This document shows, one piece after another, positions 3,611 to 31,999 of a stretch of DNA of 32,000 nucleotides (positions are counted from its first letter, which is position 1; each line of letters starts with the position of its first letter). Origin of the DNA: Vibrio vulnificus CMCP6 (lineage in GTDB: Bacteria > Pseudomonadota > Gammaproteobacteria > Enterobacterales > Vibrionaceae); NCBI RefSeq assembly GCF_000039765.1, contig NC_004459.3, positions 840,001-872,000 on the forward strand. The letters are read 5' to 3'. The position numbers were made by a program, and so were the translations under genes. The notes under the pieces were generated by a model. It worked only from the letters and a program-made list of their open reading frames with translations. It was not told the DNA's origin and made no database searches.

Positions 3611-4450
3611 TTACGCCACATCTTGTTGCTGCTCGGCTTTGCGTTTGTGTTTGCGATATTTGGGATGGGTAATTGGAATCGCAGACAAGAGTTTTTTGGT
3701 GTAATCGTTTTGTGGATTGGCGTACACCTCTTTGGCGCTGCCCTCTTCCACCACTTTACCAAAGTACATCACTGCCACTTTGTCGGAGACGTGTTTCACC
3801 ACCGACAGATCGTGCGAAATAAAAATGATCGCCAAATTCATCTCTTGCTGAAGCTGCAGCAATAAATTGAGGATCTGTGCTTGCACGGACACATCCAACG
3901 CAGAGACCGACTCATCACAAATGAGCAATTTAGGCTTTAACGCAATCGCGCGTGCAATACCAATACGCTGACGTTGACCACCAGAAAATTCGTGTGGATA
4001 GCGATTGACAGCCTCAACAGGCAAGCCCACTTTCACCAATAACTCTTTCACCCACGTTTTACGCTCCTCCGGAGTGCCTATTTTGTGGATGATGTAAGGT
4101 TCTTCCAAAATCATGCCAATGGTGTGACGCTGATTGAGTGATTCCATTGGGTCTTGAAAAACAATTTGCATCTCTTTGCGCAGTGGGCGCATCTCTTTGG
4201 GAGAAAGCTTGGTGATATCGCGCCCTTCAAAGAAAATTCGCCCTTCCGTTGGTTCATACAGTTTAAGCAGCGTGCGCCCTAAGGTGCTTTTGCCACAACC
4301 CGACTCGCCAACCAAACCTAAGGTTTCCCCTTGGTTGACCGATAAACTGACGCCATCCACCGCTTTGACAGTATAGCCTTTACGAAACAAGCCTTTGCCA
4401 GAGACAAAATGTTGCTTGAGATTTTCAATCCTTAATACTTCTTTACTCAT
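3611..4450 (-). CDS. PepT-family ABC transporter ATP-binding protein (OppF/DppF-like)
   Basis: The protein has Walker A GESGCGKST, signature FSGGQRQR and Walker B LLICDESVSALD. The internal ATG at 4450 (MSKEVLRIENL) has AAGGA 7 nt upstream and sits 10 nt after the upstream gene's stop. The track start at 4531 would overlap that gene by 71 nt. Confidence 0.9.
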   Translation of the reverse strand: MSKEVLRIENLKQHFVSGKGLFRKGYTVKAVDGVSLSVNQGETLGLVGESGCGKSTLGRTLLKLYEPTEGRIFFEGRDITKLSPKEMRPLRKEMQIVFQDPMESLNQRHTIGMILEEPYIIHKIGTPEERKTWVKELLVKVGLPVEAVNRYPHEFSGGQRQRIGIARAIALKPKLLICDESVSALDVSVQAQILNLLLQLQQEMNLAIIFISHDLSVVKHVSDKVAVMYFGKVVEEGSAKEVYANPQNDYTKKLLSAIPITHPKYRKHKRKAEQQQDVA

Positions 4451-4460
4451 CCTGAATTCC

Positions 4461-5330
4461 TTAGCTCCTCTGACTGACTTCAAACATGCTGCTATCCATC
4501 GGCTTAATGTCGATGAGCTGCTTAGGCTCACTGTCCAAGCTTGGCATTAAGCCCATCAACCGCTCAGTGTAAGGGTGCTTAGGATGATCAAACAGTTCAA
4601 AAATCTCTGCGTACTCAACAATCCGACCACCGTACATGACCGCGACGTCATCGCACACTTCCGCCACCACACCCAGATCGTGCGTAATGAAAATCATCGC
4701 CATACCCGTTTCTTGTTGTAACTCGTTCATCAGTTCCAAAATGGATGCCTGAACGGTCACGTCCAACGCGGTGGTTGGCTCGTCACAGATCAAGATATCC
4801 GGCTTGCACGCCAGTGCCATCGCAATCATCACTCGCTGACGCATCCCACCAGATAGGTTGTGCGGGTACTCATTGAGGCGCTTCTCTGGCAGTGGAATTT
4901 TCACTTTTTTCAGCATCTCAAGCGCGTACTCGTTGCGAGCGCGTTTATCCAAATCCGGGCGGTGCAACTCTAAGACTTCGTTAATCTGGCGACCAACGGT
5001 GTGAACTGGATTAAGCGCCGTCATTGGATCTTGAAAAATGATGGAGATTCGATCACCACGCATCGCGTACATCTGCTCAGCAGGCAGCGTCACCAAATCG
5101 GTGCCGCGATAGAGAATTTGTCCATTCACAATCTGACCATAAGGCTTGGGCAACAACCCCATGATCGACATGGAAGTGACACTTTTGCCACTGCCAGACT
5201 CACCAACCAGTCCCAAAGTGCGTCCTGCGCGAACGTCAAAGTTGACGCCGTGCAATACCTTGACTGGGCCATCATCGGTGGTGAAAGAGACCTCAAGATC
5301 TCTGACACTCAGAATCACATCATCCTGCAT
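4461..5330 (-). CDS. PepT-family ABC transporter ATP-binding protein (OppD/DppD-like)
   Basis: The protein has Walker A GESGSGKS, signature LSGGMRQR and Walker B ILICDEPTTALD. The ATG at 5330 (MQDDVILSVRDL) has GAGGGA 6 nt upstream. The alternative ATG at 5360 forms an ATGA overlap with the binding-protein stop codon. Confidence 0.88.
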   Translation of the reverse strand: MQDDVILSVRDLEVSFTTDDGPVKVLHGVNFDVRAGRTLGLVGESGSGKSVTSMSIMGLLPKPYGQIVNGQILYRGTDLVTLPAEQMYAMRGDRISIIFQDPMTALNPVHTVGRQINEVLELHRPDLDKRARNEYALEMLKKVKIPLPEKRLNEYPHNLSGGMRQRVMIAMALACKPDILICDEPTTALDVTVQASILELMNELQQETGMAMIFITHDLGVVAEVCDDVAVMYGGRIVEYAEIFELFDHPKHPYTERLMGLMPSLDSEPKQLIDIKPMDSSMFEVSQRS

Positions 5331-5356
5331 CGTGCTTCCCTCTTTTGGCCAACTTA

Positions 5357-7186
5357 TCATTTATAGGTGTCATCAATGACCGTCACAGGAGCAAACGCCT
5401 TCCCTGCTTTAATGGCTTTTTCAGTTTCTTTCTTCGCGTCTTTATCGATCCAGAATGTCCCTAAACCAATCGCACCACCACTGGTAAATAAGACTTCCGA
5501 TTTTTTGGTCATCGCCTTTTGTGGGTACTTCAACCAGCGCCAGTAACCCACACGGGTATACGGTACCATGTAGCCTGGAACAATCAGGTTCGCATCGCTA
5601 ATAATTTGCTGAATTTGATGGGAATAGCTGTACTTCTTCTCCAAATCAAATTCGTTTTTGTACGCCATGATTAACTTGTCCAGTTCAGGCGTGCTGAAAT
5701 TGGTGTGGTTATTGGTTTGTGGGCGATTCGCATTGGCCGAATGGAAGTACTCCCAATAAGCTGGCACATCGGAAGTACCCATATCTAAGAACGCCAGTTC
5801 ATGCTTTTTCTCGAGGATGAATTTAAACGCAGAGGAACCATCCACCAGTTTTAGTTCAAACTCCAATCCTGCTTTCTTCGCTTGCTCTTTCAAATACGCG
5901 ATACGTGGCGTGTGGTGAGCATAACCATAGGTGATGGCGAAACTGAGACGCTGCCCTTTATCGTTGACCCGCACCCCATCGGCACCAATTTGGTTAAAGC
6001 CCGCCGCTTCAAAGTAACGAATGGCTAATTCCGGATCAAACTTAGGCGGCACTGGGTTAGGCAAGTCGTATTTACCATGGCCAGAACCGAGCGCGTGAGG
6101 CTTACGTGAGTAGTCACCACGGGTGATCTTATCGATCATGCCATCGTAATCTGTAGCATGCATGATCCCTTTACGCACATTGAGATCATCCAGCAGAGGC
6201 GTGGCAACGTTCATCCACAGTCCACCCGCGCCTTGCGGGGTTTGGTTGTAACCCCAGAACTTCTCGATGTAGCCTTTTTGGTACGGTTCTGTGTTGGATT
6301 TGTCGTGCCACAAATCGGGTAGGATTAGGCCAAAAGTATCCAAATCGCCTTTTTCGAAATGCTTCATCGCGATGTCGTTATCGCGGATCACCGTGATACG
6401 GATTTTCTCCACATTGTAACGGTGTTGATAATACTTGTTGCTATACCCCCACCAATCTTGACCAACGTGTTTGAAGGTGACGCTTTTGCCCTTCTTAATG
6501 TCATCAAGGTAATAAGCGTTGGTGGTTGGCTCAGCTTTGAAGTTGTATTTGCGCACGAAGTTATCGTCGATGCCGTCGCCATTTTCATCTTTCGCTGGCT
6601 TGGCATAAAAGTGCGCAGGTCGCGGACGAAGCGCGCCTAAGGTATAGAGAAGATCTTCTTGGTTTTTCTCAACTTTGCTCACCGCCGCGAAGGTGTGCTG
6701 ATCAATTTTCTGCACATCGTCAATCACATTGGTGTAGTACTCGTTATACCAAGGTGCTACCAAATCTTTTGAGCGGTAAAACTTGAGCATAAAAACGAAG
6801 TCATCGGCAGTCACGGGTTTGCCGTCCGACCATTTGGCATTGGGGTTTAATTTGAAATAAACCGTGCGGTTATCCCTAGCGAAGGCCCATTCATTGGCTA
6901 AGGCCGGGATCCACTCCAACGTGTCTGGATGTTGGTCTACCAGCGCAGGTGTCTCATCGAGGAAAAACGAACGCAACCCTGAGTTAGAATCAGGCCCAAC
7001 ACTGCGTAAAGTTTGTGGAAAGCTTTGAATGAAAGTACGGAATGTCCCGCCAAATTTGGCATCTGAAGAAGCAAACAACGGCTCATCCCAGTTGGTCTGC
7101 CAGTTCACATCCGCAGGTAAAGTGGTGGCGTAAACACCAGCACTCATCAGCGATAACGCTGTGGTTAGTAACGTTTTTTTCATCAT
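5357..7186 (-). CDS. Periplasmic substrate-binding protein, solute-binding family 5 (YejA-like, 609 aa)
   Basis: It has a signal peptide (MMKKTLLTTALSLMSAGVYA). Its size and sequence style resemble the large YejA/OppA-type binding proteins. It sits between the permease and ATPase genes of one operon. Confidence 0.85.
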   Translation of the reverse strand: MMKKTLLTTALSLMSAGVYATTLPADVNWQTNWDEPLFASSDAKFGGTFRTFIQSFPQTLRSVGPDSNSGLRSFFLDETPALVDQHPDTLEWIPALANEWAFARDNRTVYFKLNPNAKWSDGKPVTADDFVFMLKFYRSKDLVAPWYNEYYTNVIDDVQKIDQHTFAAVSKVEKNQEDLLYTLGALRPRPAHFYAKPAKDENGDGIDDNFVRKYNFKAEPTTNAYYLDDIKKGKSVTFKHVGQDWWGYSNKYYQHRYNVEKIRITVIRDNDIAMKHFEKGDLDTFGLILPDLWHDKSNTEPYQKGYIEKFWGYNQTPQGAGGLWMNVATPLLDDLNVRKGIMHATDYDGMIDKITRGDYSRKPHALGSGHGKYDLPNPVPPKFDPELAIRYFEAAGFNQIGADGVRVNDKGQRLSFAITYGYAHHTPRIAYLKEQAKKAGLEFELKLVDGSSAFKFILEKKHELAFLDMGTSDVPAYWEYFHSANANRPQTNNHTNFSTPELDKLIMAYKNEFDLEKKYSYSHQIQQIISDANLIVPGYMVPYTRVGYWRWLKYPQKAMTKKSEVLFTSGGAIGLGTFWIDKDAKKETEKAIKAGKAFAPVTVIDDTYK

Positions 7187-7224
7187 TATGTCCCTATATT
7201 ATCCGTTCCAACAGTATTGACCAT

Positions 7225-8268
7225 CTAAACGTAACGGGTGAATTTTTTCGGATCAAAGGCTGCACGAATGGCTTCACCAATAAAGGTCACCATCACCAAC
7301 ACAGCAACGATAGAGCTCACCACTGAGGCCACAATCCAAGGCGAATCCAAGTTTGATTTCCCTTGCTGTAGCAGTTCACCCCAACTTGGCGTTGGCGGCA
7401 TCAATCCTAGTCCTAAGTAATCCAACGCCGTTAATGCCGTAATATTGCCAGCGATGGTAAACGGCGCTAGCGTCACGATCATCACCATGGTATTTGGCAA
7501 GATATGCTGGAAGAGAATCCGCGAAGTTGAAGCACCAAGCGCTTTGGCCGCCAGTACATATTCGCGCGCTGACTCTTTATAGGTCATGGTACGCATGTAC
7601 CACGTCATGCCCATCCAACCAAATAGAACGTTGATGCCAACAAAGAGCGCGAAAGTCGGTTGCACAATCGAGACCAAAATCATGATGACGTACAAAAACG
7701 GCACCATCGACCAGATCTCAATCAGTCGCTGGACAAACAGGTCAAATTTGCCGCCCCAATAGCCCATCGCACAGCCCACCGCAGTACCAATTGTATAAGA
7801 GATGGCCATCGTCAGCAGTGCGAACCCCATCGCGGTCCGAAAACCGTACACCAGTCGCGCGAGAATATCGCGACCAATCACATCGGTACCGAGATAGTGT
7901 TTTGATTCTGCACTGGGCGCTGTCGGCGGAAAATCGCCCGAAAAGTCCTGTTCGTAGGGGTTCCATGGCACAATCGGCATGATCACGAAGTTGCCGGACT
8001 CTTCCGCTGCAAACTGTTTTTGCAACTGGCGATAGTTGGCTTCACCCGCAGACTCTTGCCCAAACTCACTGCCACTTCTCACATCACTGATGACGGGAAA
8101 GTAATAGTGGCCATCGTATTTCACCATCAAGGCTTTGCTGTTGATCAGCAATTCAGCGAACAGCGATAACACCAACATTGCAGAAAGAAGAATGAAAGAC
8201 CAATAGCCACGCTTGATCGCCTTGAAGCTTCTTATTTTCTTTTGAGTTAACGGACTCACTTTGATCAT
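7225..8268 (-). CDS. ABC transporter permease (YejE/DppC-like)
   Basis: This is a multi-TM protein with the binding-protein-dependent transport signature region (...AKALGASTSRILFQHILPN...). The ATG at 8268 has GGAG 8 nt upstream and lies 1 nt after the upstream permease's TAA stop. The TTG at 8280 in the ORF track is less likely. Confidence 0.88.
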   Translation of the reverse strand: MIKVSPLTQKKIRSFKAIKRGYWSFILLSAMLVLSLFAELLINSKALMVKYDGHYYFPVISDVRSGSEFGQESAGEANYRQLQKQFAAEESGNFVIMPIVPWNPYEQDFSGDFPPTAPSAESKHYLGTDVIGRDILARLVYGFRTAMGFALLTMAISYTIGTAVGCAMGYWGGKFDLFVQRLIEIWSMVPFLYVIMILVSIVQPTFALFVGINVLFGWMGMTWYMRTMTYKESAREYVLAAKALGASTSRILFQHILPNTMVMIVTLAPFTIAGNITALTALDYLGLGLMPPTPSWGELLQQGKSNLDSPWIVASVVSSIVAVLVMVTFIGEAIRAAFDPKKFTRYV

Positions 8269-8269
8269 A

Positions 8270-9295
8270 TTAAGCTCCAAACTTCACACGAGGATCGACC
8301 AGCGCAACACAAACATCGGAAATGATATTTCCTAGCAGGAGAAGCACCGCATTAATTGCCACAATACCCATTACAACAGGATAATCACGCTCAATGATCG
8401 ACTCATAGCCTAATAAGCCTATGCCATCGATATTGAAAATAACCTCAATTAAGAACGCACCAGTCATAAAGAAGAGTAAGGAATTACCAAAATGGCTCGC
8501 GATAGGAATTAAACTATTTCGTAAAGCGTGTTTGCGTACTGCCGTTTTAAACGGCAAGCCTTTGGCGATTGCGGTACGAATATAATCCGATGACAAGTTC
8601 TCCATCAGGTTATTTTTCATCGTCAATGTCAACGTGGCAAAGTCACCAATCAAATAACAGATAAGTGGCAATACCGCGTGCCACATGACGTCTTTCGCAC
8701 GCTCAAAAAACGTCTCCAAATCATCAAAATCATCGCCGACAAAGCCCCCCATCGGGAACCATTCCAAATGGTAGGAAAAGAGTGTGATCAGCAGAACACC
8801 CACCACATAACCGGGCAGCGCATAGCCAACAAAAATTAGAATCGACGAGGCGGAATCAAAAACCGAACCATGCCGAAGCGCTTTGTAATAGCCCAGTGGA
8901 ATAGAAATGAAGTAACTGATAAAAAAGGTCATTCCACCGTAGAAGAGGGAAACCGGAAGACGCTCTGCGATCATGTCTCCCACCGGTTCGTAATAGCGAG
9001 TGGACTCGCCGAAATCTAACCTAACCAGCTTGCTTAGCCAATCCAAATACGCCTGTGCAACAGGTTTATCCAAACCATAAAAGGCATTGAGTTCCGCCAT
9101 TTGCTCTTCAGACAGTGCCGAGTTGCCCCCGGCAGTGGTCATGGCCGCAGCACCGTCGCCTTGTGCCTGCATTTTAGACAGCATGCGTTCCACTGGACCA
9201 CCAGGAACAAAACGGGTAATAGCAAAGATAAGAATAGTAATTCCTAGGAAAGTAGGAATGACCAGCGCCAGTCGGCGCAGAAAATATGACAGCAT
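8270..9295 (-). CDS. ABC transporter permease (YejB/DppB-like)
   Basis: The protein resembles E. coli YejB along its length, with MLSYFLRRLALVIPTF... against YLIRRLLLVIPTL, and ...DYIRTAIAKGL...LIEVIFNIDGIGLLGYESIIERDYPVV against [27 protein letters not shown]. The ATG at 9295 has GGAG 9 nt upstream, whereas the TTG at 9301 is too close to that GGAG. Confidence 0.88.
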   Translation of the reverse strand: MLSYFLRRLALVIPTFLGITILIFAITRFVPGGPVERMLSKMQAQGDGAAAMTTAGGNSALSEEQMAELNAFYGLDKPVAQAYLDWLSKLVRLDFGESTRYYEPVGDMIAERLPVSLFYGGMTFFISYFISIPLGYYKALRHGSVFDSASSILIFVGYALPGYVVGVLLITLFSYHLEWFPMGGFVGDDFDDLETFFERAKDVMWHAVLPLICYLIGDFATLTLTMKNNLMENLSSDYIRTAIAKGLPFKTAVRKHALRNSLIPIASHFGNSLLFFMTGAFLIEVIFNIDGIGLLGYESIIERDYPVVMGIVAINAVLLLLGNIISDVCVALVDPRVKFGA

Positions 9296-9639
9296 ATACA
9301 ACTACTCCATGTCGACTGCCTATAAATTAGAGTTTGTTAAATTAATAAATAATCAAATTCTAACTTATCTAGAGAATTAGGAACTTAATTGAAATAAGTC
9401 GGTCGAAATGTTCATCCTGAACAGCTTCAATCTCTGGAATTCAAGTTCAACGCCAGATATTAAGCGCCATATGTATCTTGAAATAACCAAAGCTTCAAGT
9501 ATTTGTGATGAAAGCATGACAAATTACCAACCACATCTAAATTCTATAAATAAATTTGTAAAAAAATATAAAAGACTGCTCATTTTCCAATCACAGAATA
9601 TCAAACTGTAATGAATGGGGCTTTTGCACTACATAAAAA

Positions 9640-9651
9640 TGCAATATTGCA
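9640..9651. promoter_or_regulatory. Perfect 12-bp palindrome TGCAATATTGCA in the divergent control region (candidate operator)
   Basis: The sequence was read directly and is its own reverse complement. TTGCAC occurs at 9624-9629 and again at 9647-9652, 23 bp apart. Confidence 0.3.
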
Positions 9652-9823
9652 CAATAAACAGTCAGCCATTCTAACAGTTAAAAAACGCAAAAACCATGAT
9701 GAGCCCTTATGATACAAGGGGTATCATAATTTGATACCACCAGACTCATCTTACCAGTTTGCACAAAAATGAAGCATAAAACATCATTCAGTTTAAAGCT
9801 TCAGCCAAATGAGATTAATCAAC

Positions 9824-9991
9824 ACATTTCACTACAATAGATCCACCCTCCAACACATACCATTAGATAATGCGCACAACACAAAATACGGTGTTTTATT
9901 GAAACATTTCACAATAAAGTGCGCCAAATCACAGATAATCATGCTGTATATATAACTTAATTTAAAATTTTACATATTTTTTACATTTCAT
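9824..9991 (+). repeat. Three spaced copies of ACATTTCA(C/T)
   Basis: ACATTTCAC occurs at 9824-9832 and at 9904-9912, and ACATTTCAT at 9983-9991. The spacing is 80 and 79 bp. Copies 1 and 2 also share flanking A-rich context (aACATTTCACtAcAAta and aACATTTCACaAtAAag). Confidence 0.6.
9918..9933. promoter_or_regulatory. CRP-like site AGTGC-N6-TCACA
   Basis: The site matches the TGTGA-N6-TCACA core at 8 of 10 positions. The GTG triplet and the whole right half are intact. A TATATATAA run follows at 9947-9955. Confidence 0.3.
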
Positions 9992-10011
9992 TAGCCGTGC
10001 ATCCCACTGGT

Positions 10012-10041
10012 TTGACTTGCAAAATTCATCTCATGTATATC
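10012..10041 (+). promoter_or_regulatory. Candidate sigma70 promoter for the TonB-dependent receptor gene
   Basis: TTGACT (10012-10017), an 18-nt spacer and TATATC (10036-10041) form the candidate. The -10 lacks the conserved final T, so the call is weak. Confidence 0.3.
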
Positions 10042-10047
10042 TGTCGC

Positions 10048-10069
10048 GAAACGTTAACGAAACATTAAC
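10048..10069 (+). repeat. Tandem 11-bp direct repeat GAAACGTTAAC / GAAACATTAAC in the receptor leader
   Basis: The two units match at 10 of 11 positions. The first unit overlaps the perfect palindrome CGTTAACG (10052-10059). The repeat lies 60-80 bp upstream of the ATG at 10129. Confidence 0.7.
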
Positions 10070-10109
10070 GTCACATTTGGTCGTCGTTCAGACCAAACAT
10101 AGGAATTAA

Positions 10110-10129
10110 GCAACACGGAGCAACACGGA
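10110..10129 (+). repeat. Perfect 10-bp tandem duplication GCAACACGGA x2 abutting the receptor start codon
   Basis: The units occupy 10110-10119 and 10120-10129. The junction creates GGAG (10117-10120), the likely Shine-Dalgarno sequence. The last A of unit 2 is the A of the ATG. Confidence 0.8.
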
Positions 10130-12717
10130 TGTATAAAAACACAACAGCCTTATCCGTTGCGATCAGCCTTGCATTGGGTACAGCAGCCATGTCCCCGATA
10201 GCTTTCGCAGAAGAGCAGCAAGTCGAGCAACTACAAAAGATGAAAGTCACCGGTTCACGAATCTCAACCACTGAGATGGAAGGACCTTCTCCTGTCACCG
10301 TCATTACCAGCAAAGATATTGCGGCGAAAGGTTTTAACAGCGCACAAGACATTCTCAACAGCTTGACGCAAAACACAGGTGGTACACTCGCGCAAACCAA
10401 CTCATTCTCGTTCACTCCTGCAGCACAGTCCGTTAACCTTCGTGGTCTAGGCGCTTCACGTACGTTGATTTTGATCGATGGCCGTCGCATGCCGCAGTAC
10501 CCACTGGCACAAAACGGCGTTTCAAACTTCCAAGACATCGGCCAAATCCCTGTATCAGCGATTGAGCGTGTGGAAGTAATGACTGACTCAGGTTCGGCCA
10601 TCTACGGTTCTGATGCGATCGGCGGTGTGGTTAACTTTATCCTCAAGAAAGACTTCGACGGCGTGTCAGTGAAGGCGCGTTATGGCGATGCCACTGAAGG
10701 TGGCTACGAAAACGGCCGTCTTGATATCGTTGCGGGTAAAGACATGGAAGATAAGCGTGTTTTGTTTGTTGCGCAGTTAGCGGGCAACGAAATGCTGCAA
10801 CAAAGCGACAGAAGCTGGGCGGGTGACGATAACTCTGATCGCTCTGCCTTTGGCGCTTACTCTAGCTACGGTGCGAGCTTTGTTGAAAAAGGCACCGGCA
10901 ACGTTCTAACACCTGCGGTCAATGGTAAAACGTGTCAAGACGTTGTGGGGGAACATGGTATCGATCGCGCCGATGGCAAGTGTGGCTTTAACCGCTCAGC
11001 GTATCGCTCCTTAAAACCAGAAAACAAACAAGTCGACCTACTACTTCGTGGTGAAATGGATCTTAATGATGATCTGACTGCGATGGCAGAAGCGCGTTTC
11101 GGTTACAAATCTACCTCTTCCATTTTCGAACCGAACCCATACGACGTTGAAACAGACGCAAAGCACTCACGTGGTGAAGGTAAATACACTCGTCGTTTGG
11201 TGGAATTTGGCCCACGTGAAAGCAATACGGAAGCGAACGCATTTGGCTTGACCACAGGTTTAACTGGTTTACTGGCAAATACCTACGATTGGGAAGTGTA
11301 CGCCAGTTACTCTGAGCAAAAAGTCGAGACCGACAACCCTGCAGTGTTGAACACTCTCGATCAAGCGGTTCAAAACGGTTACATCGACCTACTCGATACG
11401 ATCTCTGCTGCCGACGTTGCCAAATACAGCGGCCGCTCAACCAAAGAAGCGTACTCAAAACTCTACTCCATCAATGGCTCACTTGCTGGCGATCTAGTGG
11501 AACTGCCTGCCGGCATGTCTGGCTTTGCGGTTTACGGTGAATGGAACCGTACCGATTACAACGAATCTATCGATGCGATCACCAAATCAGGCGGATTCTC
11601 TGGTCTAGGCGGCACCTCTGGTGGTGGTGAGCGTGATCAAATCGGTTTAGGTGTGGAAGTGCTTATTCCAGTACTGGAAGACCTAGAAGTGACGCTAGCG
11701 GGTCGTTATGACCACTACTTTGATGATTCAGCAACTGGCGGTGCCTTTACACCGAAAGCGTCGATCGCTTACCGTCCTACCGATACCCTATTGCTACGTG
11801 GTAGCTACGGCCTTGGTTTCCGCGCACCAGACCTAAAACGTCTGTTTGGTGAAGAGACCAAAGCGTTTGGCTCAGGCTTCGATCCACAACTTTGTGCTTC
11901 TGTCGGCGGTACTGGCCCTAACGACACCATTCCTGAGTGTTCAACACAGTACTTTGATACGGTAAACGGTCCAAACGCCGAGCTTGAAGAAGAAACCAGC
12001 ACCAACATCAACTTGGGCCTAGCGTGGGAACCTGTGGATGATCTTGGTTTAACCGTTGACTGGTACCACATCAAAATGGAAAACGTGGTATCCGCACCTT
12101 CTTACCAAGACGTTATCAACGATCCGTCAAAGTACCCAGGTACCCAAGTGGTTCGTAACCCAGATGGCACCATCAAAACCGTTATTTATGGCCCAGTAAA
12201 CCAAGCGTTTGAAACTCGCTCGGGTATCGACTTGTCATTGGGTTATGCGTACGACACGGTGAGCATGGGTTCATTCTCAACCAAGTTCTCTATCACTAAG
12301 ATCTTGATTGCAGAATCTCAAGAAAGCAGCAGTGAGCCAGTGATCGATGAGCGTGACTTCCTACCGGAATACACCGCGACATTGAACCTAGGCTGGGCAT
12401 ACCAAGACGTGAACGTGAACCTATTTGGTAAGTTCCGCGACGAGATGTGTACAAGTTACGCGAACGACTACTACTTCGAAGATTGTGATGCAGCGAAAAA
12501 AGCGGGTTACGAAACCAAGATCTCTAGTATGACAACGTGGAACCTAACAACGTCTTACCAATTCAACGAAAGTGGTCGTGTCACTCTAGGCATCATCAAC
12601 ATGTTTGATAAAGAGCCGCCAAAAGATCCTCTAAACGACACTTCTCCTTTCTACGCAGACACTTATGACGATCCAATTGGTCGCCAAGTGTATGTTGAGG
12701 CGTCTTACGACTTCTAG
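10129..12717 (+). CDS. TonB-dependent outer-membrane receptor (862 aa), substrate unknown
   Basis: The protein has a signal peptide (MYKNTTALSVAISLALGTAAMSPIAFA). A plug region follows (KMKVTGSRIS...VTVITSKDI...NLRGLGASRTLILIDGRR...IERVEVMTDSGSAIYGSDAIGGVVNFI). The long barrel ends in the typical aromatic terminus YVEASYDF. There is no N-terminal signalling (STN) extension. Confidence 0.92.
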   Translation: MYKNTTALSVAISLALGTAAMSPIAFAEEQQVEQLQKMKVTGSRISTTEMEGPSPVTVITSKDIAAKGFNSAQDILNSLTQNTGGTLAQTNSFSFTPAAQSVNLRGLGASRTLILIDGRRMPQYPLAQNGVSNFQDIGQIPVSAIERVEVMTDSGSAIYGSDAIGGVVNFILKKDFDGVSVKARYGDATEGGYENGRLDIVAGKDMEDKRVLFVAQLAGNEMLQQSDRSWAGDDNSDRSAFGAYSSYGASFVEKGTGNVLTPAVNGKTCQDVVGEHGIDRADGKCGFNRSAYRSLKPENKQVDLLLRGEMDLNDDLTAMAEARFGYKSTSSIFEPNPYDVETDAKHSRGEGKYTRRLVEFGPRESNTEANAFGLTTGLTGLLANTYDWEVYASYSEQKVETDNPAVLNTLDQAVQNGYIDLLDTISAADVAKYSGRSTKEAYSKLYSINGSLAGDLVELPAGMSGFAVYGEWNRTDYNESIDAITKSGGFSGLGGTSGGGERDQIGLGVEVLIPVLEDLEVTLAGRYDHYFDDSATGGAFTPKASIAYRPTDTLLLRGSYGLGFRAPDLKRLFGEETKAFGSGFDPQLCASVGGTGPNDTIPECSTQYFDTVNGPNAELEEETSTNINLGLAWEPVDDLGLTVDWYHIKMENVVSAPSYQDVINDPSKYPGTQVVRNPDGTIKTVIYGPVNQAFETRSGIDLSLGYAYDTVSMGSFSTKFSITKILIAESQESSSEPVIDERDFLPEYTATLNLGWAYQDVNVNLFGKFRDEMCTSYANDYYFEDCDAAKKAGYETKISSMTTWNLTTSYQFNESGRVTLGIINMFDKEPPKDPLNDTSPFYADTYDDPIGRQVYVEASYDF

Positions 12718-12742
12718 ATAGCAACACTTTGTAAACCCTTTT

Positions 12743-12769
12743 GGCGCGGGAAATGCCCGCGCCCTTTTC
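12743..12769 (+). terminator. Rho-independent terminator or attenuator between the receptor gene and ttpB
   Basis: An 8-bp GC-rich stem GGCGCGGG / CCCGCGCC (12743-12750 with 12756-12763) has a 5-nt loop and is followed by CTTTTC. It lies inside the over-extended 12741 ORF start. Confidence 0.7.
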
Positions 12770-12800
12770 GACTGACAAAAACACTGACAAGGATGCAACC

Positions 12801-13565
12801 ATGACGTTAAAGAAATTTGGCGTGAGTGCACTCACCGCAGCGATGCTGAGCCTAACAGGCAGCGCGTTAGCCGCAGACGCAGGAAGCGTGATTTCCACTC
12901 AGGCAGGCACCAATAAAGCCGCTCAAGTCTCTCAAGACAAAATCGATGGCTACGCGGATAGTACCGACACCATGCTCGCCGAATACAAGGCCATCATGCG
13001 CCAAGTAGACAGCATGAAAGTCTACAACGAGCAGATCAATCGCATGGTGCAATCGCAGCAAGGCGAACTGGATTCATTAGATCGCCAAATCGCGCAGATT
13101 GACCAAACCGCGATGGAAGTGGTGCCACTGACTTTAAAAATGATTGATGCGCTCGACGAAATCGTCACGCTCGATCTGCCGTTCCAAACCAAAGAACGCA
13201 ACAAACGAATCAACGAACTACGCGAACTAATGGATCGCGCAGACGTCACCACCTCGGAAAAATTCCGCAAAGTGATGGAAGCGTACCAAATCGAAGAAGG
13301 CTTCTCTCGTTCCATCGAATCTTACAAAGCCAGCTTAGATCGCAATGGTGAAGTGGTGACTTACGACTTCCTACGCATTGGTCGTACTGCGTTGCTTTAC
13401 CAATCGCCAGACGGTGTTGAAACCGGTATGTGGAACCAGCAAACCCGCCAATGGGAAGCGCTGCCTGAAAGCTACCGTATTGCCGTGCAGCAAGGAATTC
13501 GTATCGCGAAGAAACAAGCGCCACCGGCTCTGATCAAATTGCCAGTGTTTGCTGGGGAGGAATAA
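12801..13565 (+). CDS. ttpB: DUF3450-type periplasmic coiled-coil protein of TonB2/TonB3 clusters (TtpB-like)
   Basis: The ATG at 12801 has AAGGA 7 nt upstream and gives the signal peptide MTLKKFGVSALTAAMLSLTGSALA. The body is coiled-coil rich. Its position immediately upstream of the large MotA/ExbB-like gene matches the Vibrio TonB2-type operon layout as I recall it. Confidence 0.75.
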   Translation: MTLKKFGVSALTAAMLSLTGSALAADAGSVISTQAGTNKAAQVSQDKIDGYADSTDTMLAEYKAIMRQVDSMKVYNEQINRMVQSQQGELDSLDRQIAQIDQTAMEVVPLTLKMIDALDEIVTLDLPFQTKERNKRINELRELMDRADVTTSEKFRKVMEAYQIEEGFSRSIESYKASLDRNGEVVTYDFLRIGRTALLYQSPDGVETGMWNQQTRQWEALPESYRIAVQQGIRIAKKQAPPALIKLPVFAGEE

Positions 13566-13567
13566 TC

Positions 13568-14929
13568 ATGAAAGGATTCAAAACCATCGCCGCCGCACTG
13601 CTGGCTAGCCTGTTTATGGTCTCCAGCGCGCATGCGGAAGCACCAAAATCACTCAACGAACTGCTCAAGAACGTCAAATCGGAAAGCATCGTTGAGTCAA
13701 AAGAAAACAAAGCGCGTGAGCAAGAATTTCTTGCCGACCGCAACAAACAAGCGGAGCTGCTCAAGCAGGCAAAAGCCCAACTCAAAGCCGAAACGGCACT
13801 GGGTGAGCAACTGAAAGCCACCTTTGACGACAACGACAAAAAGCTGACCGAACTGACTGAAACGTTACGCCAACGTTCAGGCACTTTGGGCGAAATGTTT
13901 GGCGTGGTTCGTCAGTATGCGGGTGAATTCAAAGGCCTATTCAACGCCTCTCAGAACGCAGTTCAGTTTCCACAACGTGACGCTTTGCTCACCAAACTGG
14001 CCGAGAGTAAAGAGCTGCCTTCCACCGAAGAACTCGAGTCGTTCTGGCACACCGTGCTGCAACAGATCATTGTGTCTGGGGAAACCTCAACCACACCTGC
14101 AACCGTGGTTTACGGCGAAGGTAAAGAAGCCGTACGTGATGTCACCTTGGTGGGTGAATTTAACGCCATCGCTGATGGCAAATACGTTACCTACGTCCCT
14201 CAAACCGGCAAGTTCGAAGAGTTGTCTCGTCAACCACGTGCCAATATCACCCGTCATGTAGCGGGATTTGAATCCACCTCTTCAAGCTATGAGCCGCTAT
14301 TTATTGACCCTTCTCGCGGCGTCATTTTATCTCTCTTGGTACAAAGCCCCACCGTAAAAGAACGCATCGACCAAGGTGGTATCGTGGGTTACGTGATTCT
14401 CGCCATGGGTGCATTAGGCGCATTGATTGCCCTATTCTGTTACCTACGTTTACTGGTGATCGGCGGCAAGATGCGTAAGCAAGCCAAATCTGATGCGGTG
14501 ATTGAAGGCAACCCACTGGGTGAAGTGATTCAAGCGTATCAAGATCACAAAGGCGACAACTTGGAAGATCTAGAAGCGAAACTGGATGAAATCATTCTAC
14601 GCAACGCGCCTAAGATCGAGCGATTCATTGTCTCCATCAAACTGTTTGCTTCCGTTGCGCCACTACTGGGCCTCTTGGGTACGGTAATGGGGATGATCGG
14701 CACCTTCCAAGCGATCACTCTCTTTGGTACTGGCGATCCGAAACTGATGGCCGGCGGTATCTCGGAAGCACTCGTGACCACCATGCTTGGTCTGGTTGTG
14801 GCCATCCCACTGCTGTTCTTCTACACCTTAGTACACAGTAAAGGCCGTCGTTTAGTGCAAACCCTTGAAGAGCAAAGCGCTGGCTTTATTGCTCGCTACC
14901 AGGAAAAACTGCACACAGCCGAACGCTAA
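13568..14929 (+). CDS. ttpC: Large MotA/TolQ/ExbB-family proton-channel protein (TtpC-like, 453 aa)
   Basis: The protein has a signal peptide (MKGFKTIAAALLASLFMVSSAHA) and a long periplasmic N-domain. The C-terminal 3-TM channel domain carries LLGLLGTVMGMIGTFQAI. GGAGGA lies upstream of the start, which is 2 nt after the ttpB stop. Confidence 0.85.
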   Translation: MKGFKTIAAALLASLFMVSSAHAEAPKSLNELLKNVKSESIVESKENKAREQEFLADRNKQAELLKQAKAQLKAETALGEQLKATFDDNDKKLTELTETLRQRSGTLGEMFGVVRQYAGEFKGLFNASQNAVQFPQRDALLTKLAESKELPSTEELESFWHTVLQQIIVSGETSTTPATVVYGEGKEAVRDVTLVGEFNAIADGKYVTYVPQTGKFEELSRQPRANITRHVAGFESTSSSYEPLFIDPSRGVILSLLVQSPTVKERIDQGGIVGYVILAMGALGALIALFCYLRLLVIGGKMRKQAKSDAVIEGNPLGEVIQAYQDHKGDNLEDLEAKLDEIILRNAPKIERFIVSIKLFASVAPLLGLLGTVMGMIGTFQAITLFGTGDPKLMAGGISEALVTTMLGLVVAIPLLFFYTLVHSKGRRLVQTLEEQSAGFIARYQEKLHTAER

Positions 14930-14938
14930 GGAGGCGCT

Positions 14939-15466
14939 ATGTGGTGGTTAATTGAAGAGTTAGAGTCCATCAGACGATTCCTTGGCATGGGTGGCGACGT
15001 ATTGGTCGCGATCTTTGTCCTCAGCTTCATGCTGTGGGTCGTTTTGCTGGAACGCTGGTTCTACTTTATCGCCGTCGCTCCTCGTGCCATGAAGCAAGCT
15101 CTTGCCACTTGGACCGAGCGCACGGAGCACACCAGCTGGAACGCCAGAATGATCAGACAGGAGATCATCTCCCGTCAGGATATCGAGAATAAAAAAGGGT
15201 TACCGATCGTCAAAGTGTTGATCGCCCTCTGTCCACTGCTTGGTCTTTTAGGCACCGTGGTGGGCATGATTCAAGTATTCGATATTTTGGCCATCGTCGG
15301 AACAGGAAGCCCTCGCGCCATGGCGTCAGGGATCTCAAAGGCAACCATTCCAACACTTGCAGGAATGGTGGCATCGCTATCGGGGTTGTTCTTTAGCACC
15401 CGCTTAGATCACTTAGCGAAAGTCACCACTCGTAAACTGGAAGATAAGTTGAAGCATATTGCCTAA
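14939..15466 (+). CDS. exbB: ExbB (MotA/TolQ/ExbB proton channel, 175 aa)
   Basis: It has the channel motif PLLGLLGTVVGMIQVF and three predicted TM segments. AAGGAGG lies 5 nt upstream of the start. Confidence 0.88.
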   Translation: MWWLIEELESIRRFLGMGGDVLVAIFVLSFMLWVVLLERWFYFIAVAPRAMKQALATWTERTEHTSWNARMIRQEIISRQDIENKKGLPIVKVLIALCPLLGLLGTVVGMIQVFDILAIVGTGSPRAMASGISKATIPTLAGMVASLSGLFFSTRLDHLAKVTTRKLEDKLKHIA

Positions 15467-15519
15467 TACCAATGGCAGAGCGATCGCCTTTTCTCTCTAT
15501 CGCTCTGGCTGATTTGGTA
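15467..15519 (+). other. Imperfect extended hairpin in the 81-nt exbB-exbD spacer
   Basis: CAGAGCGAT (15476-15484) pairs with ATCGCTCTG (15499-15507) across a 14-nt pyrimidine-rich loop. An outer pair, TACCAA (15467-15472) with TTGGTA (15514-15519), extends the structure. Confidence 0.45.
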
Positions 15520-15547
15520 TCAATAAATGGAATTAGAGGTATAGGTC

Positions 15548-15955
15548 ATGAAAAGACGCTATAGCAGTGACAGTAATGATGAAATGGCCATTGATATGAC
15601 CCCGATGCTCGACATCGTTTTCATCATGTTGATCTTCTTTATTGTAACAACGTCATTTGTAAAAGAAGCGGGTATCGATGTGAACCGCCCTAGTGCCAAC
15701 TCGGCACAAACCGTCGCCAAAGGCAACATCATGGTCGCGGTTGGCGCGGCGGGTGATGTCTGGATCGACAAGCGACGCGTCGAAGTCGATGCGGTCCGTG
15801 CCAACGTTGAACGCCTGCGTGCAGAAAGCCCAGATGGTGCAGTGGTCATCCAAGCGGATGAAGAAGCGAATGCTGGTGTGGTTGTAAAAGTGATGGATCA
15901 GATACGCATGGCTGGTGTAGCCAATATCTCCATCGCCGCGACCAACAAGGATTAA
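15548..15955 (+). CDS. exbD: ExbD/TolR-family protein
   Basis: The protein is 135 aa. It has a single N-terminal TM segment (MLDIVFIMLIFFIVTTSF) and a periplasmic domain typical of ExbD. It lies between exbB and tonB. Confidence 0.88.
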   Translation: MKRRYSSDSNDEMAIDMTPMLDIVFIMLIFFIVTTSFVKEAGIDVNRPSANSAQTVAKGNIMVAVGAAGDVWIDKRRVEVDAVRANVERLRAESPDGAVVIQADEEANAGVVVKVMDQIRMAGVANISIAATNKD

Positions 15956-15959
15956 GCTT

Positions 15960-16592
15960 ATGCGTTATCTGGCCTCAATTGCACTGGCGCTCGTTGTCTC
16001 CCTCGGATTGTTCTGGGGGATGGACAAGCTGGTAAATAAAGAGCGCCACGAACTGGCATCGAACGATGATCTGCGCATGGTGGATTTCATTCGAGTCAAA
16101 CCCGAAGAAAAAGTACAGGAGAAAAAACGCGAGCTACCCAAACCGCCACCACCGAAACGTCCACCACCACCGCCGGAGATGAAGATCACCTCCACAGTAA
16201 AACCGGTGATGGAACAGATCCCTATAGACATGCCCAAGCTGGATCTGCCCGTCAACATTACTGGTGGTTCCGTTCTTGGTCATTATTCCCAAGGTGGCGG
16301 GGCACAAGTAGCTGGCACTGGTGGTCCGATGCCATTAGCGACTTTCCAACCGCAAATGCCGCGTAAAGCCGCCAAAGCGGGATTGGAAAAAGGTTTGGTT
16401 GTTCTTGAGTTCACCGTCAACGAGCGTGGCGGGGTGGAAGACATCAAAGTTCTCAAAGAGGAACCTCGCCGCATGGATTTGGGTAAAGAAGCACGGAAAA
16501 CCGTGTCGAAATGGACCTTTAAACCCAAGATGGTCGATGGCAAACCTGTGAGCTCTCGTATGGCTCAAGAAATTGAGTTCTCGGTAAATTAA
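15960..16592 (+). CDS. tonB: TonB energy transducer (210 aa)
   Basis: It has an N-terminal anchor (IALALVVSLGLFWGM) and a proline-rich spacer (LPKPPPPKRPPPPPE). The C-terminal domain is TonB-like (...GLVVLEFTVNERGGVEDIKVLKEEP...). Confidence 0.88.
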   Translation: MRYLASIALALVVSLGLFWGMDKLVNKERHELASNDDLRMVDFIRVKPEEKVQEKKRELPKPPPPKRPPPPPEMKITSTVKPVMEQIPIDMPKLDLPVNITGGSVLGHYSQGGGAQVAGTGGPMPLATFQPQMPRKAAKAGLEKGLVVLEFTVNERGGVEDIKVLKEEPRRMDLGKEARKTVSKWTFKPKMVDGKPVSSRMAQEIEFSVN

Positions 16593-16602
16593 GGAGTCAA
16601 AC

Positions 16603-17820
16603 ATGATGAAATCATTCAAAAATGTCCTGGCTTCCCTCACCTTGATTGCTGGTGTGATACTCACACCAGCGCAAGCGAAAGAAGCTCCGGAACTGTCTGA
16701 CCGTACCTTCCGTACTGTGAATAAGGTGCAGGAACTGATCGCAACAGAGAAATACTCTGCGGCATTGGAAAAGCTCTCTGACGCGCTGGAAGGCACCACC
16801 AAAAAATACGATCGCGCGGTACTGCTGCAACAAACGGGCTTTTTGTACTCCCTCAAAGAGGATTACAAAAATGCGGCAAAATACTTCGCGGAATCGTTAA
16901 AACTGGAGGCTTTACCGGTTCCTGTGGCTCAGCAAGTGCGTTATAGCTTGGCCCAATTGTACCTTTCTGAAGAAAAGTACAAACAGTCGGTAGAGACGAT
17001 GAAAACGTGGTTTGAAATCGCCAAAACCACCGATGAAAAGCCTCAAGCCCATGCGTACATCACTCTCGCCAGTGCCTACGTTCAAATGGATGATTACAAA
17101 AACGCGATTGCACCTACCAAGCAAGCCATCGCAATGAGTAAGAATCCAAGTGAATCCTGGTATCTGCTGTTGATGGCATCGCACTACGAGCTGAAGCAAT
17201 TGAAAGAAGTGGTGGGCGTTTTAAAAATACTCACCACAAAATACCCAGAGAAAAAACGGTATTGGATGCAGTTGTCGGGAACCTATATGGAACTCAACCA
17301 AGAGCGCAATGCCCTTTCTGCACTCGAAATGGCTTACAAAATGGGGCTACTCGATGAAGAGAAAGAGTTTCTTCGCTTGGTGAATTTCTTAGCGTACCAA
17401 AACATCCCATACCGAGCGGCGAAAACGCTGCAAACGGAACTGGATAACGGCAATATCACGCGAAATCAGGACAATTTGGAGCGTTTAGCCAGTTTTTGGC
17501 AACAAGCAAAAGAACTGGATAAAGCGATCGACACTTATCAACAAGCGTATACTTTGGCCCCTACTGCCAAGAGCCAAATTCGCATCGCGCGTTTGATGCT
17601 TCAAGATAAGCAGTTTGATAAAGCGACCGAGTTTACTGGTACGCCAGCGGCTGATGCCAAATTGGATCAAAAAGCAGAGCTGGAATACGTTCGTGGCCTT
17701 GCTTACTTTGAACTGAAAGATTCTCAGCGTGCGTTACGCTCAATGCAAAGTGCTGCTCAGTCAGAAAAAATGCGCCAAGTGGTTAGCCCTTGGATCACAT
17801 ATCTGGCGGGTCAAGGATAA
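16603..17820 (+). CDS. ttpD: Periplasmic TPR-repeat protein closing the TonB cluster (TtpD-like)
   Basis: It has a signal peptide (MMKSFKNVLASLTLIAGVILTPAQA) and helical TPR-like repeats throughout. AAGGAG lies 6 nt upstream of the start. It is the last gene before a strong terminator. Confidence 0.7.
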   Translation: MMKSFKNVLASLTLIAGVILTPAQAKEAPELSDRTFRTVNKVQELIATEKYSAALEKLSDALEGTTKKYDRAVLLQQTGFLYSLKEDYKNAAKYFAESLKLEALPVPVAQQVRYSLAQLYLSEEKYKQSVETMKTWFEIAKTTDEKPQAHAYITLASAYVQMDDYKNAIAPTKQAIAMSKNPSESWYLLLMASHYELKQLKEVVGVLKILTTKYPEKKRYWMQLSGTYMELNQERNALSALEMAYKMGLLDEEKEFLRLVNFLAYQNIPYRAAKTLQTELDNGNITRNQDNLERLASFWQQAKELDKAIDTYQQAYTLAPTAKSQIRIARLMLQDKQFDKATEFTGTPAADAKLDQKAELEYVRGLAYFELKDSQRALRSMQSAAQSEKMRQVVSPWITYLAGQG

Positions 17821-17883: not shown

Positions 17884-17910
17884 GGGGAAGCTTGTCTTCC
17901 CCTTTTTTCT
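17884..17910 (+). terminator. Rho-independent terminator of the TonB operon
   Basis: The stem GGGGAAG / CTTCCCC has a 5-nt loop and is followed by TTTTTT (17903-17908). Confidence 0.88.
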
Positions 17911-18024
17911 TCTACACAACAGGCAAATCGCGTTCATTTTGGAGACAACTTCAACTGGCAACCACCCTCAGTTCGTGATACTCTTCGCCTCCATTTTTCT
18001 GGCCGAAAAGTCATCAACTGGTGA

Positions 18025-31555: not shown

Positions 31556-31999
31556 CTATAACACCGCAATCACTTCTGAAGGGGTATGAGGCGCGACAGA
31601 GTGACCGTAATGGTACTTGATGATCGCTCGACGCTTCTCCATGATCCCTTCTCTTATCGCCGCATCCAAGATACGTTTGGGCAGACGATAGCGCATTGCG
31701 TAGCCTTTACCCTGTTCTTCACTGTAACTTCGCAGTGCCAGAAGTCCAAAAAGCCGCTCAAGCGTGTCTTTGGGGTCTTCATGATAGACCGAGATCTCTT
31801 GCGTATTGGTTTCCATCTCATAGCCAGGGTGCTCTGAAGGATCCCACGAAGATTGACGTCGGCGTTTATCATCACTTTTGACTTTACGTTCCGCGTTAGA
31901 TTTGGCCAACGCAACGGTTGGCGCCACAGGTTCACGCACTCTATTATCGCGCGCGGCCTGCTCTGTCTGCACATTTACCGATGGGGCGATCAGTGGCAC
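31556..31999 (-). CDS. Hypothetical protein, probably truncated at the right window edge
   Basis: The frame is open from the TAG stop at 31556 to the window edge. The listed start is a GTG in the last complete codon, so the true start probably lies outside the window. The protein has a basic, low-complexity N-part (KVKSDDKRRRQSSWDPSEHPGYE) and a structured-looking C-terminus (LERLFGLLALRSY...RILDAAIREGIMEKRRAIIKYHYG). I recognise no family. Confidence 0.5.
   Translation of the reverse strand: MPLIAPSVNVQTEQAARDNRVREPVAPTVALAKSNAERKVKSDDKRRRQSSWDPSEHPGYEMETNTQEISVYHEDPKDTLERLFGLLALRSYSEEQGKGYAMRYRLPKRILDAAIREGIMEKRRAIIKYHYGHSVAPHTPSEVIAVL

Follow-up and report, generated by a model that had tools for sequence, protein, structure and literature searches.

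A stretch of 32,000 nucleotides from Vibrio vulnificus CMCP6 (contig NC_004459.3, positions 840,001 to 872,000; below, the window, from whose first letter positions are counted) carries a divergent block of 12 genes, of which those on the minus strand encode an ATP-binding cassette (ABC) importer with a YejA-like binding protein, and those on the plus strand are the published V. vulnificus TonB3 operon, with a TonB-dependent receptor as first gene. Whether the 12 genes constitute one envelope-spanning uptake unit, with oligopeptides too large for porins as its most likely substrate, is to our minds evenly poised. Taken separately, it is rather probable that receptor-TonB3 and the ABC importer act as one functional unit, and a little short of an even bet that peptides are what is carried. 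The evidence comprises the gene content, a linkage conserved between genomes, the cassette structure of the receptor slot and the peptidase genes that are neighbors in relatives.

As envisaged, expression would depend on Lrp and cAMP-CRP and rise when carbon and amino acids are scarce (the literature on this concerns the tonB3 operon only). The outer-membrane receptor, which in V. vulnificus is the version here termed type A, would bind substrate, and a dedicated energizer of the TonB2 type (TtpB3, TtpC3, ExbB3, ExbD3, TonB3 and TtpD3) would open it via the TonB box. The periplasmic YejA-like protein would then capture the substrate for two permeases and two ATPases to carry into the cytoplasm. 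Since the receptor is a replaceable cassette behind a constant module, different species would present different front ends to the same energizer and importer. A common substrate for both operons, their co-regulation and the peptide nature of the substrate are what we infer from the observations that follow.

Linkage of the two operons across genomes

Gene neighborhoods were obtained by exact-protein look-up and then by tblastn with the 12 window proteins. The full divergent 12-gene block is present in V. parahaemolyticus, at the same psiE/yicC chromosomal site, in Salinivibrio costicola, in Aeromonas veronii, where the flanks are unrelated (UDP-glucose dehydrogenase and YitT; YkuD and an S49 peptidase), and in A. 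sanarellii and one Aeromonas metagenome-assembled genome. A metagenome scan with TtpC3 yielded 13 Vibrio-like contigs, and all seven of those that reach far enough upstream have the ABC operon. Co-localization, on which a first-pass annotation of this DNA had made its proposal of a complete uptake route depend, is thus found across two bacterial families. More distant TtpC homologues from metagenomes (36-55% identity) lie in generic TonB2-type clusters with no adjacent ABC operon, so that it is to the TonB3 clade that the linkage belongs.

A scan of a genome collection with a receptor alignment was dominated by generic receptor motifs; the matches listed comprised 79 distant loci and no Vibrio orthologues. 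Among the matches listed, 10 of the 77 other loci had PepT-type ABC genes no more than 10 kb away. As such operons are common, this is not clearly above chance, and adjacency of this kind in distant homologues was not counted.

Some further features of these neighborhoods are recorded for their own sake. Between yicC and the ABC operon of Salinivibrio (locus L082, 1555-2981) there is a gene for an integrase-arm-type DNA-binding protein together with an insertion sequence-type transposase (rve), so that mobile DNA borders the block in that genome. In Gallaecimonas and in four metagenome contigs (L090 7859-9625; L122, L124, L129 and L132), distant TonB2-type clusters repeatedly have a DUF885 gene after ttpD. 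Pairs of MbnB_TglH_ChrH and HvfC genes, maturation genes like those for RiPPs (peptides that the ribosome synthesizes and that are modified after translation), are found about 5 kb from receptor homologues of 34-38% identity in Gallaecimonas and Shewanella (L090 17150-18737; L091 18099-19717), to which they are probably unrelated.

A receptor slot with exchangeable occupants

The receptor slot is filled by one or another of at least three receptor types (A, B and C), whose mutual identity is 29-35%. Pairwise comparison across six genomes puts the identity of the other 11 genes at 71-94% for V. vulnificus against V. parahaemolyticus and at 87-99% for A. veronii against A. sanarellii; in both pairs the receptor is only 34-35% identical. 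Type A is that of V. vulnificus, Salinivibrio (71%) and A. veronii (60%), and type B that of V. parahaemolyticus, A. sanarellii (52%) and the Aeromonas metagenome-assembled genome. One Vibrio metagenome contig has in the slot type C, of 827 residues, whose identity to A and B is 31-33%. (The loci bearing the types are, besides window positions 10129-12717, L086 4471-7071, L012 and L018 10001-12540, L098 6681-9161 and L092 10001-19151.) All three types occur in related Vibrio whose flanking DNA is 76-92% identical; there, alignment between types is possible over no more than the first ~137-280 bp of the receptor gene.

What stays constant, near-identical between types within a lineage, is an N-terminal module of signal peptide, linker and TonB box (10129-10263, plus strand; ending …EEQQVEQLQKMKVTGSR). 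The box itself is a candidate read from the sequence, LQKMKVTGSR, which is just ahead of the plug and kept in all homologues. The first ~45 residues are ~82% identical between types A, B and C in Vibrio, after which sliding-window identity is 15-45%, and Aeromonas and Endozoicomonas receptors have the same pattern of constant N-terminus and variable body. A 55-residue query of the module against a protein database retrieved short fragments only. In the Aeromonas pair, DNA identity falls just past the TonB box and returns exactly at the receptor stop codon. Between species it picks up again at a G+C-rich hairpin with an 8-bp stem in the gap between the receptor stop codon and ttpB3 (12743-12763, plus strand; z = -2.75), which lies at the conserved 3' edge of the cassette and reads GGCGCGGG-aaat-gCCCGCGCC, followed by CTTTTC. 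This hairpin could be an attenuator or an mRNA-stabilizing element, or it may act as a partial terminator that sets the ratio of receptor to energizer expression.

Endozoicomonas sp. 4G is instructive in that types A, A and B stand in tandem upstream of the same six energizer genes, and one lineage-specific N-terminal module is common to all three receptors. Because of this sharing, a plausible origin for the cassette is a tandem array in an ancestor, from which receptors were lost differentially by recombination between the 5' modules. We tentatively extend this to a broader proposal, which we hold to be somewhat doubtful, that the TonB3 locus is a modular gamma-proteobacterial uptake unit, a counterpart of the peptide and glycan loci of Bacteroidota, for scavenging oligopeptides when carbon and amino acids run short, including in serum. 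Its promoter, signal peptide and TonB box would be fixed, receptor bodies would be exchanged by recombination or kept from a tandem array, and the remaining parts would be a private six-protein TonB engine and the YejA-like ABC importer.

The importer, its paralogue and the peptidase neighbors

The minus-strand operon begins with a YejB/OppB-like permease (8270-9295) and continues with a YejE/OppC-like permease (7225-8280), both with Pfam BPD_transp_1, a periplasmic family-5 substrate-binding protein of 609 residues with a YejA-like fold (5357-7186, Pfam SBP_bac_5), an OppD-like ATPase (4461-5360) and an OppF/DppF-like ATPase of 279 residues (3611-4450), the last two with ABC_tran plus oligo_HPY. 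The first-pass annotation had these genes right; the order, permease-permease-binding protein-ATPase-ATPase, differs slightly from the one that it gave. Three start codons assigned mechanically were corrected by sequence reading and orthologue lengths. For the OppF/DppF-like ATPase the mechanical open reading frame (ORF) extends to 4531, with an ATG at 4450 and a V. parahaemolyticus orthologue that also has 279 residues. For the first permease it extends to 9301, with the likely ATG at 9295. The third, that of ttpB3, is placed not at 12741 but at the ATG at 12801, after an AAGGA ribosome-binding site. The latter two starts are those already proposed in the annotation, all 12 of whose genes are present with their families confirmed one by one by Pfam, as it had asked of hidden Markov model searches; small start-codon corrections are the only adjustment.

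With SBP_bac_5, two BPD_transp_1 permeases and two oligo_HPY ATPases, the importer belongs to the Opp/Dpp/Nik (PepT, family-5) class. It does not reach the level of any narrower curated family. The permeases score 270 bits for the YejB subfamily (cut-off 445) and 289 bits for the YejE-type microcin C permease subfamily (cut-off 439). The ATPases score 266-304 bits for YejF (cut-off 834) and are unfused. The OppD-like ATPase reaches 335 bits for OppD (cut-off 575), the best NCBIfam matches of the other, DppF and OppF, are also under cut-off, and the best match of the binding protein, nickel_nikA, has 85 bits against a cut-off of 393, so that neither a YejABEF nor a NikABCDE assignment holds. 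The N-terminus of the binding protein reads as a Sec signal peptide without a lipobox. Its AlphaFold2 (AF2) model (predicted local distance difference test, pLDDT, 82.6) has as closest solved folds YejA of S. meliloti, YejA of E. coli, the Brucella protein 4ony and MbnE, with template modeling (TM) scores of 0.69-0.74 against YejA, 4ony and MbnE at 18-20% identity, and YejA/MbnE rank above NikA/NikZ, OppA/DppA and sugar binders. Peptide or microcin C7 is bound in the solved YejA structures. A sequence search of the PDB ranks Thermotoga oligosaccharide-binding "Opp" proteins first.

V. vulnificus has in addition a paralogous ABC operon of the same gene order that adjoins pyrF and has no receptor, and in V. 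cholerae, which lacks TonB3, the sole ABC copy is at the pyrF site. Permeases and ATPases of the two V. vulnificus copies are 83-87% identical and the binding proteins only 65%. Binding proteins form two clades, and the pyrF-linked one of V. cholerae groups with the TonB3-linked clade. After the pyrF-linked operon (L087/L088 7909-18819 in V. vulnificus; L083/L084 in V. cholerae) there is a conserved protein of 286-289 residues without Pfam match and, in both species, a lipoprotein of 1227-1376 residues with a Met-zincin (DUF4953/M66-like) motif. Surface protease and importer may here form a pair.

Clues to substrate come from relatives. In the divergent operon of Endozoicomonas there are genes for two peptidases, one of family S9 and secreted, the other an M16 lipoprotein, together with a non-orthologous family-5 ABC system; its ttpD is followed by a gene for an M3/PepF oligopeptidase. 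In Salinivibrio, a prolyl oligopeptidase with a signal peptide is encoded directly after ttpD. Among the matches listed, an S9 peptidase gene is within ~3 kb of about 10 of the 79 distant receptor homologues (all nine that were examined are confirmed by Pfam), on a rough estimate about ten-fold over chance.

The TonB3 operon and its published background

TonB3 has been known since about 2008, from V. vulnificus, V. parahaemolyticus, Aeromonas and Teredinibacter, and Alice & Crosa reportedly dealt with the V. vulnificus system in 2012. In the window the operon starts with the receptor, type A and of 862 residues (10129-12717), and continues with ttpB3 (12801-13565; DUF3450, E = 4e-85), ttpC3 (13568-14929), a long MotA/ExbB-family protein of 453 residues with MotA_ExbB on its C-terminal third, exbB3 (14939-15466; 175 residues, MotA_ExbB), exbD3 (15548-15955; ExbD), tonB3 (15960-16592; TonB_C) and ttpD3 (16603-17820; TPR families), all on the plus strand. 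An intrinsic-terminator-like hairpin (17884-17902) with a T run, together spanning 17884-17912, marks its end. The domain order given by Pfam is that of the seven-gene TonB3 operon, and in a sequence search the receptor matches a V. vulnificus protein at 99% identity, which identifies the window as V. vulnificus chromosome I. The layout given in the first-pass annotation for TonB3 is thus this very locus, described as VV0250-VV0244 and "of unknown function" by Ho et al. (PMC5554404), with the gene names ttpB3, ttpC3 and ttpD3 and the receptor-first order given by Barnes et al. 2020 (PMC6957404).

None of the siderophores assayed involves tonB3, ttpB3 or ttpD3 for its uptake (PMC6957404). Earlier work summarized there found TonB3 not to be iron-regulated and its induction to be confined to human serum and to glycerol minimal medium that is low in casamino acids. 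Binding of the tonB3 promoter by Lrp is stated in PMC5554404. The traits that the first-pass annotation ascribed to TonB3, no role with siderophores and control by Lrp and CRP rather than iron, agree with the two papers. In a serum transcriptome, TonB1 and TonB2 were up and TonB3 unchanged (PMC4260858). As late as 2023 the function of TonB3 was termed unknown (Naka and Haygood, PMC10734418). A literature search on DUF3450 turned up nothing beyond the TonB2 cluster of V. parahaemolyticus, which is iron-regulated. The TonB3 papers PMC6957404, PMC5554404 and PMC10734418 treat only the seven plus-strand genes. The divergent ABC operon goes unmentioned in them (the string 'abc' has 0 occurrences in PMC6957404), and the 2010-2012 Crosa papers, which were outside this comparison, may mention it. 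The same three papers contain neither the receptor cassette polymorphism nor the peptidase context of relatives.

Little about substrate can be drawn from the receptor itself. Its plug and barrel are clear from Pfam (Plug, E = 1e-22; TonB_dep_Rec_b-barrel, E = 8e-41), and its AF2 model (pLDDT 80) matches PirA, PfeA, FepA, Cir and BtuB with E down to 3e-35, these being generic TonB-dependent transporters without a substrate clue. The receptor is under every NCBIfam cut-off, including those of siderophore, haem and B12 receptor models, the best being TonB-hemin (137 bits against 317) and hemoglobin/transferrin (123 against 324). Siderophore and BtuB models align to its plug only, as do PDB sequence matches, and neither sequence nor structure searches of the PDB gave a close solved relative. 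A characterized siderophore or haem receptor is therefore not what it is by any curated cut-off, in keeping with the first-pass annotation.

The shared intergenic region

The divergent operons are separated by a common regulatory region of about 830 bp and 37% G+C (9296-10128), in which many blocks are conserved between V. vulnificus and V. parahaemolyticus. The earlier impression that there is no convincing Fur box was borne out: the window has no site with three or fewer mismatches, and the best intergenic match has 7 mismatches in 19 positions and is equaled or beaten in 275 of 300 shuffles. Zur and NikR boxes were likewise not found in the intergenic region (the best match to the NikR operator has 4 mismatches in 12). 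Neither the Zur and NikR scans nor one with the full CRP consensus gave anything above shuffles, and an Rfam scan gave no family match, so no riboswitch or small RNA. A match to the Lrp consensus with one mismatch (9910-9923), ~200 bp upstream of the receptor, is flanked by weak CRP-like half sites (9898-9913 and 9918-9933); all are no better than shuffles.

Other features of the region are of note irrespective of regulator. Alternating half sites, TGATAC-aaggg-GTATCA-taatt-TGATAC, are at 9710-9738, and a 19-bp palindrome, GGTATCAtaattTGATACC, at 9720-9738 is kept in V. parahaemolyticus. Upstream of the receptor, the stretches 9870-9990 and 10043-10128 are ~80% conserved between the two species, with blocks CGTTAACGAAAcATTAACGTCACATTTGGTCG, a repeat TTTACAt(n)TTTTTTACATTTC, and CACAAAATACGGTGTTTTATT; these stretches point to a leader of some length, or else to several sites for regulators. 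In the Aeromonas pair (L080 9410-9866 versus L012), the middle of the intergenic region is replaced (30-58% DNA identity) and its edges are 85-90% identical, so regulatory DNA may be swapped with the receptor or independently of it.

Weighing the alternatives

Control by Lrp and CRP together with induction at low casamino acids fits starvation-induced scavenging of amino-acid sources. Several points nevertheless weigh against a peptide-uptake unit made of both operons. No peptidase gene is inside the V. vulnificus locus, and S9 peptidases also adjoin Fur/iron-regulated receptors in V. parahaemolyticus (PMC12341060), so finding them beside a receptor does not point specifically to peptide nutrition. 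Family-5 folds of the kind matched also bind nickel, opine or RiPP metallophores, and oligosaccharides. The receptor-less copy of V. cholerae and the V. vulnificus paralogue mean that the importer family needs no TonB-dependent receptor, and by their gene context it would function without one. A. veronii has receptor type A and A. sanarellii type B, yet their binding proteins are 92% identical; the binding protein thus does not co-vary with receptor type, which fits a promiscuous peptide binder and equally fits absence of substrate coupling. With three types alternating in the slot before such a binding protein, the receptor can no longer be called strictly "dedicated", as the first-pass annotation had it. 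Lrp and CRP sites are not of a kind that sequence alone can confirm. The supplement of an Lrp transcriptome in serum has no entry for VV0244-VV0255, hence for neither operon, and a locus-tag literature search gave no further expression record for tonB3 or the ABC operon.

Mere adjacency would account for much of this. The receptor and TonB3 would then serve another nutrient or an envelope function, for instance through the reported effect on flagellum expression, and the ABC system would be a second housekeeping peptide permease, as its 83-87% identical receptor-less paralogue in the same genome, the occurrence of only that kind in V. cholerae, the lack of co-variation, the silence of the Lrp list and of co-expression records, and the distant metagenome TonB2-type clusters without neighboring ABC operon would all lead one to expect. 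We nonetheless consider it unlikely, if deserving of serious attention, for the pairing persists in Aeromonas with different flanks and through at least two receptor replacements, and Endozoicomonas has independently paired receptor types and energizer with a non-orthologous family-5 ABC system. Import of a metal chelate, of the sort known for MbnT/MbnE, CntO-CntABCDF and TonB-dependent nickel uptake, is improbable. Nickel, cobalt, copper or zinc with an opine, as a histidine complex or with a RiPP chalkophore would be candidates. MbnE is in the top three solved folds of the binding protein, NikA/NikZ score too, NikA is its best NCBIfam match, and methanobactin provides an established case of a TonB-dependent transporter paired with a family-5 protein (PMC7558416). 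Set against these are the NikA score, far under its cut-off, the failure to find NikR, Zur or Fur operators, the lack of metallophore biosynthesis, urease or hydrogenase genes in the loci examined, and the peptidases as neighbors in relatives; the published regulators are Lrp and CRP rather than metal sensors, and a specific chelate predicts a co-variation of binding protein and receptor that is not seen. Import of an organic nutrient other than a peptide, for instance an oligosaccharide from chitin or another marine glycan, has very little in its favor overall. The Thermotoga matches, the shared fold of Vibrio chitooligosaccharide-binding proteins and a CRP dependence that would suit a carbon source (PMC6957404) speak for it, and are countered by the absence of glycoside hydrolase, sugar kinase and sugar regulator genes in or next to the loci examined, by the ranking of the YejA/MbnE subgroup over all sugar binders and by Lrp control, which indicates amino-acid status.

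A different kind of alternative concerns why receptors are swapped. TonB-dependent receptors classically double as receptors for phages and colicins, and phages or bacteriocins that use the receptor might drive the swapping, in which case the types would carry the same substrate. Cir and FhuA complexes among the receptor fold matches, a binding protein unchanged across receptor types, and variability of the barrel and loops with a constant periplasmic TonB-box module accord with this. However, the types are only ~30% identical over plug and barrel alike and are ancient (A is 60% and B 52% identical between Vibrio and Aeromonas), and that Endozoicomonas keeps A and B together looks like functional diversification rather than escape variants, making such an origin rather unlikely. 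As it concerns the cause of the polymorphism, it is compatible with uptake of oligopeptides by one unit.

Relation to known systems

In E. coli, Sinorhizobium and Brucella, YejABEF has in YejA a protein of the same fold and size class as the binding protein here (TM 0.72-0.74), and it is the YejB and YejE subfamily models that the permeases match best, under cut-offs; one source labels homologues of the importer a microcin C transport system. The differences are that YejF is fused whereas there are two separate ATPases here, in the order B-E-A-D-F, that the importer here is linked to a TonB-dependent receptor with its own TonB system, and that the solved YejA proteins are only 18-20% identical to the binding protein.

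In MbnT/MbnE, the transporter hands a peptide-derived ligand to a family-5 binding protein of ~600 residues (PMC7558416). MbnE is the third-best structural match of the binding protein; here, however, genes for methanobactin biosynthesis are lacking, nothing indicates regulation by copper, and a complete ABC permease and a dedicated six-gene energizer are encoded alongside. SppR-SppABCD of P. aeruginosa, a putative xenosiderophore or peptide transporter, combines a receptor with an ABC operon of the Opp/Dpp family (by its title as cited in PMC12728205), without a dedicated TonB cluster and with a substrate that is likewise putative. Pseudomonas relatives among the matches listed have receptors ~27% and binding proteins ~21% identical. 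In view of MbnT/MbnE (PMC7558416) and the putative SppR-SppABCD (cited in PMC12728205), the suggestion that a receptor feeding such an importer would be "an undescribed functional unit" was too strong. The RagAB/SusCD loci of Bacteroidota share the logic of TonB-dependent import of oligomers derived from surface or periplasmic hydrolases, RagAB exists in several alleles (PMC11817032), and the Endozoicomonas locus resembles a peptide utilization locus. The window and related loci have no gene for a SusD/RagB-like lipoprotein, so this is not such a system; the receptor is of the classical proteobacterial type and the inner-membrane step is an ABC system.

What is known already, then, is the TonB3 operon and the pairing of TonB-dependent transporters with family-5 binding proteins. 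The conserved 12-gene block, the peptidase-rich relatives and the receptor cassette with a constant TonB-box module appear to be new.

Remainder of the window

The rest of the window is housekeeping: yicC, an EamA transporter, psiE, gmk, rpoZ, spoT, trmH and recG, with further genes for a xanthine/uracil-family permease, a histidine kinase with response regulator, a greB-like protein and tex. Pfam scans revealed no siderophore, haem or ferric-reductase gene in it, as had been noted. Two minus-strand ORFs are without Pfam match, one of 127 residues (2504-2887) and one of 147 residues that reaches the window end (31556-31999).

Implications

The conserved link to a peptide-type importer and the peptidase-rich relatives make the function of TonB3 experimentally approachable. 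If the proposal is true, oligopeptides would join the nutrients known for proteobacterial TonB-dependent transporters, and this would go some way to explaining how vibrios feed in niches rich in protein and independent of iron. A constant TonB-box module on interchangeable bodies suggests a private pairing code between TonB and receptor, and the cassette is a natural system for TonB-box specificity, for receptor evolution and, possibly, for the entry of phages, bacteriocins and peptide antibiotics.

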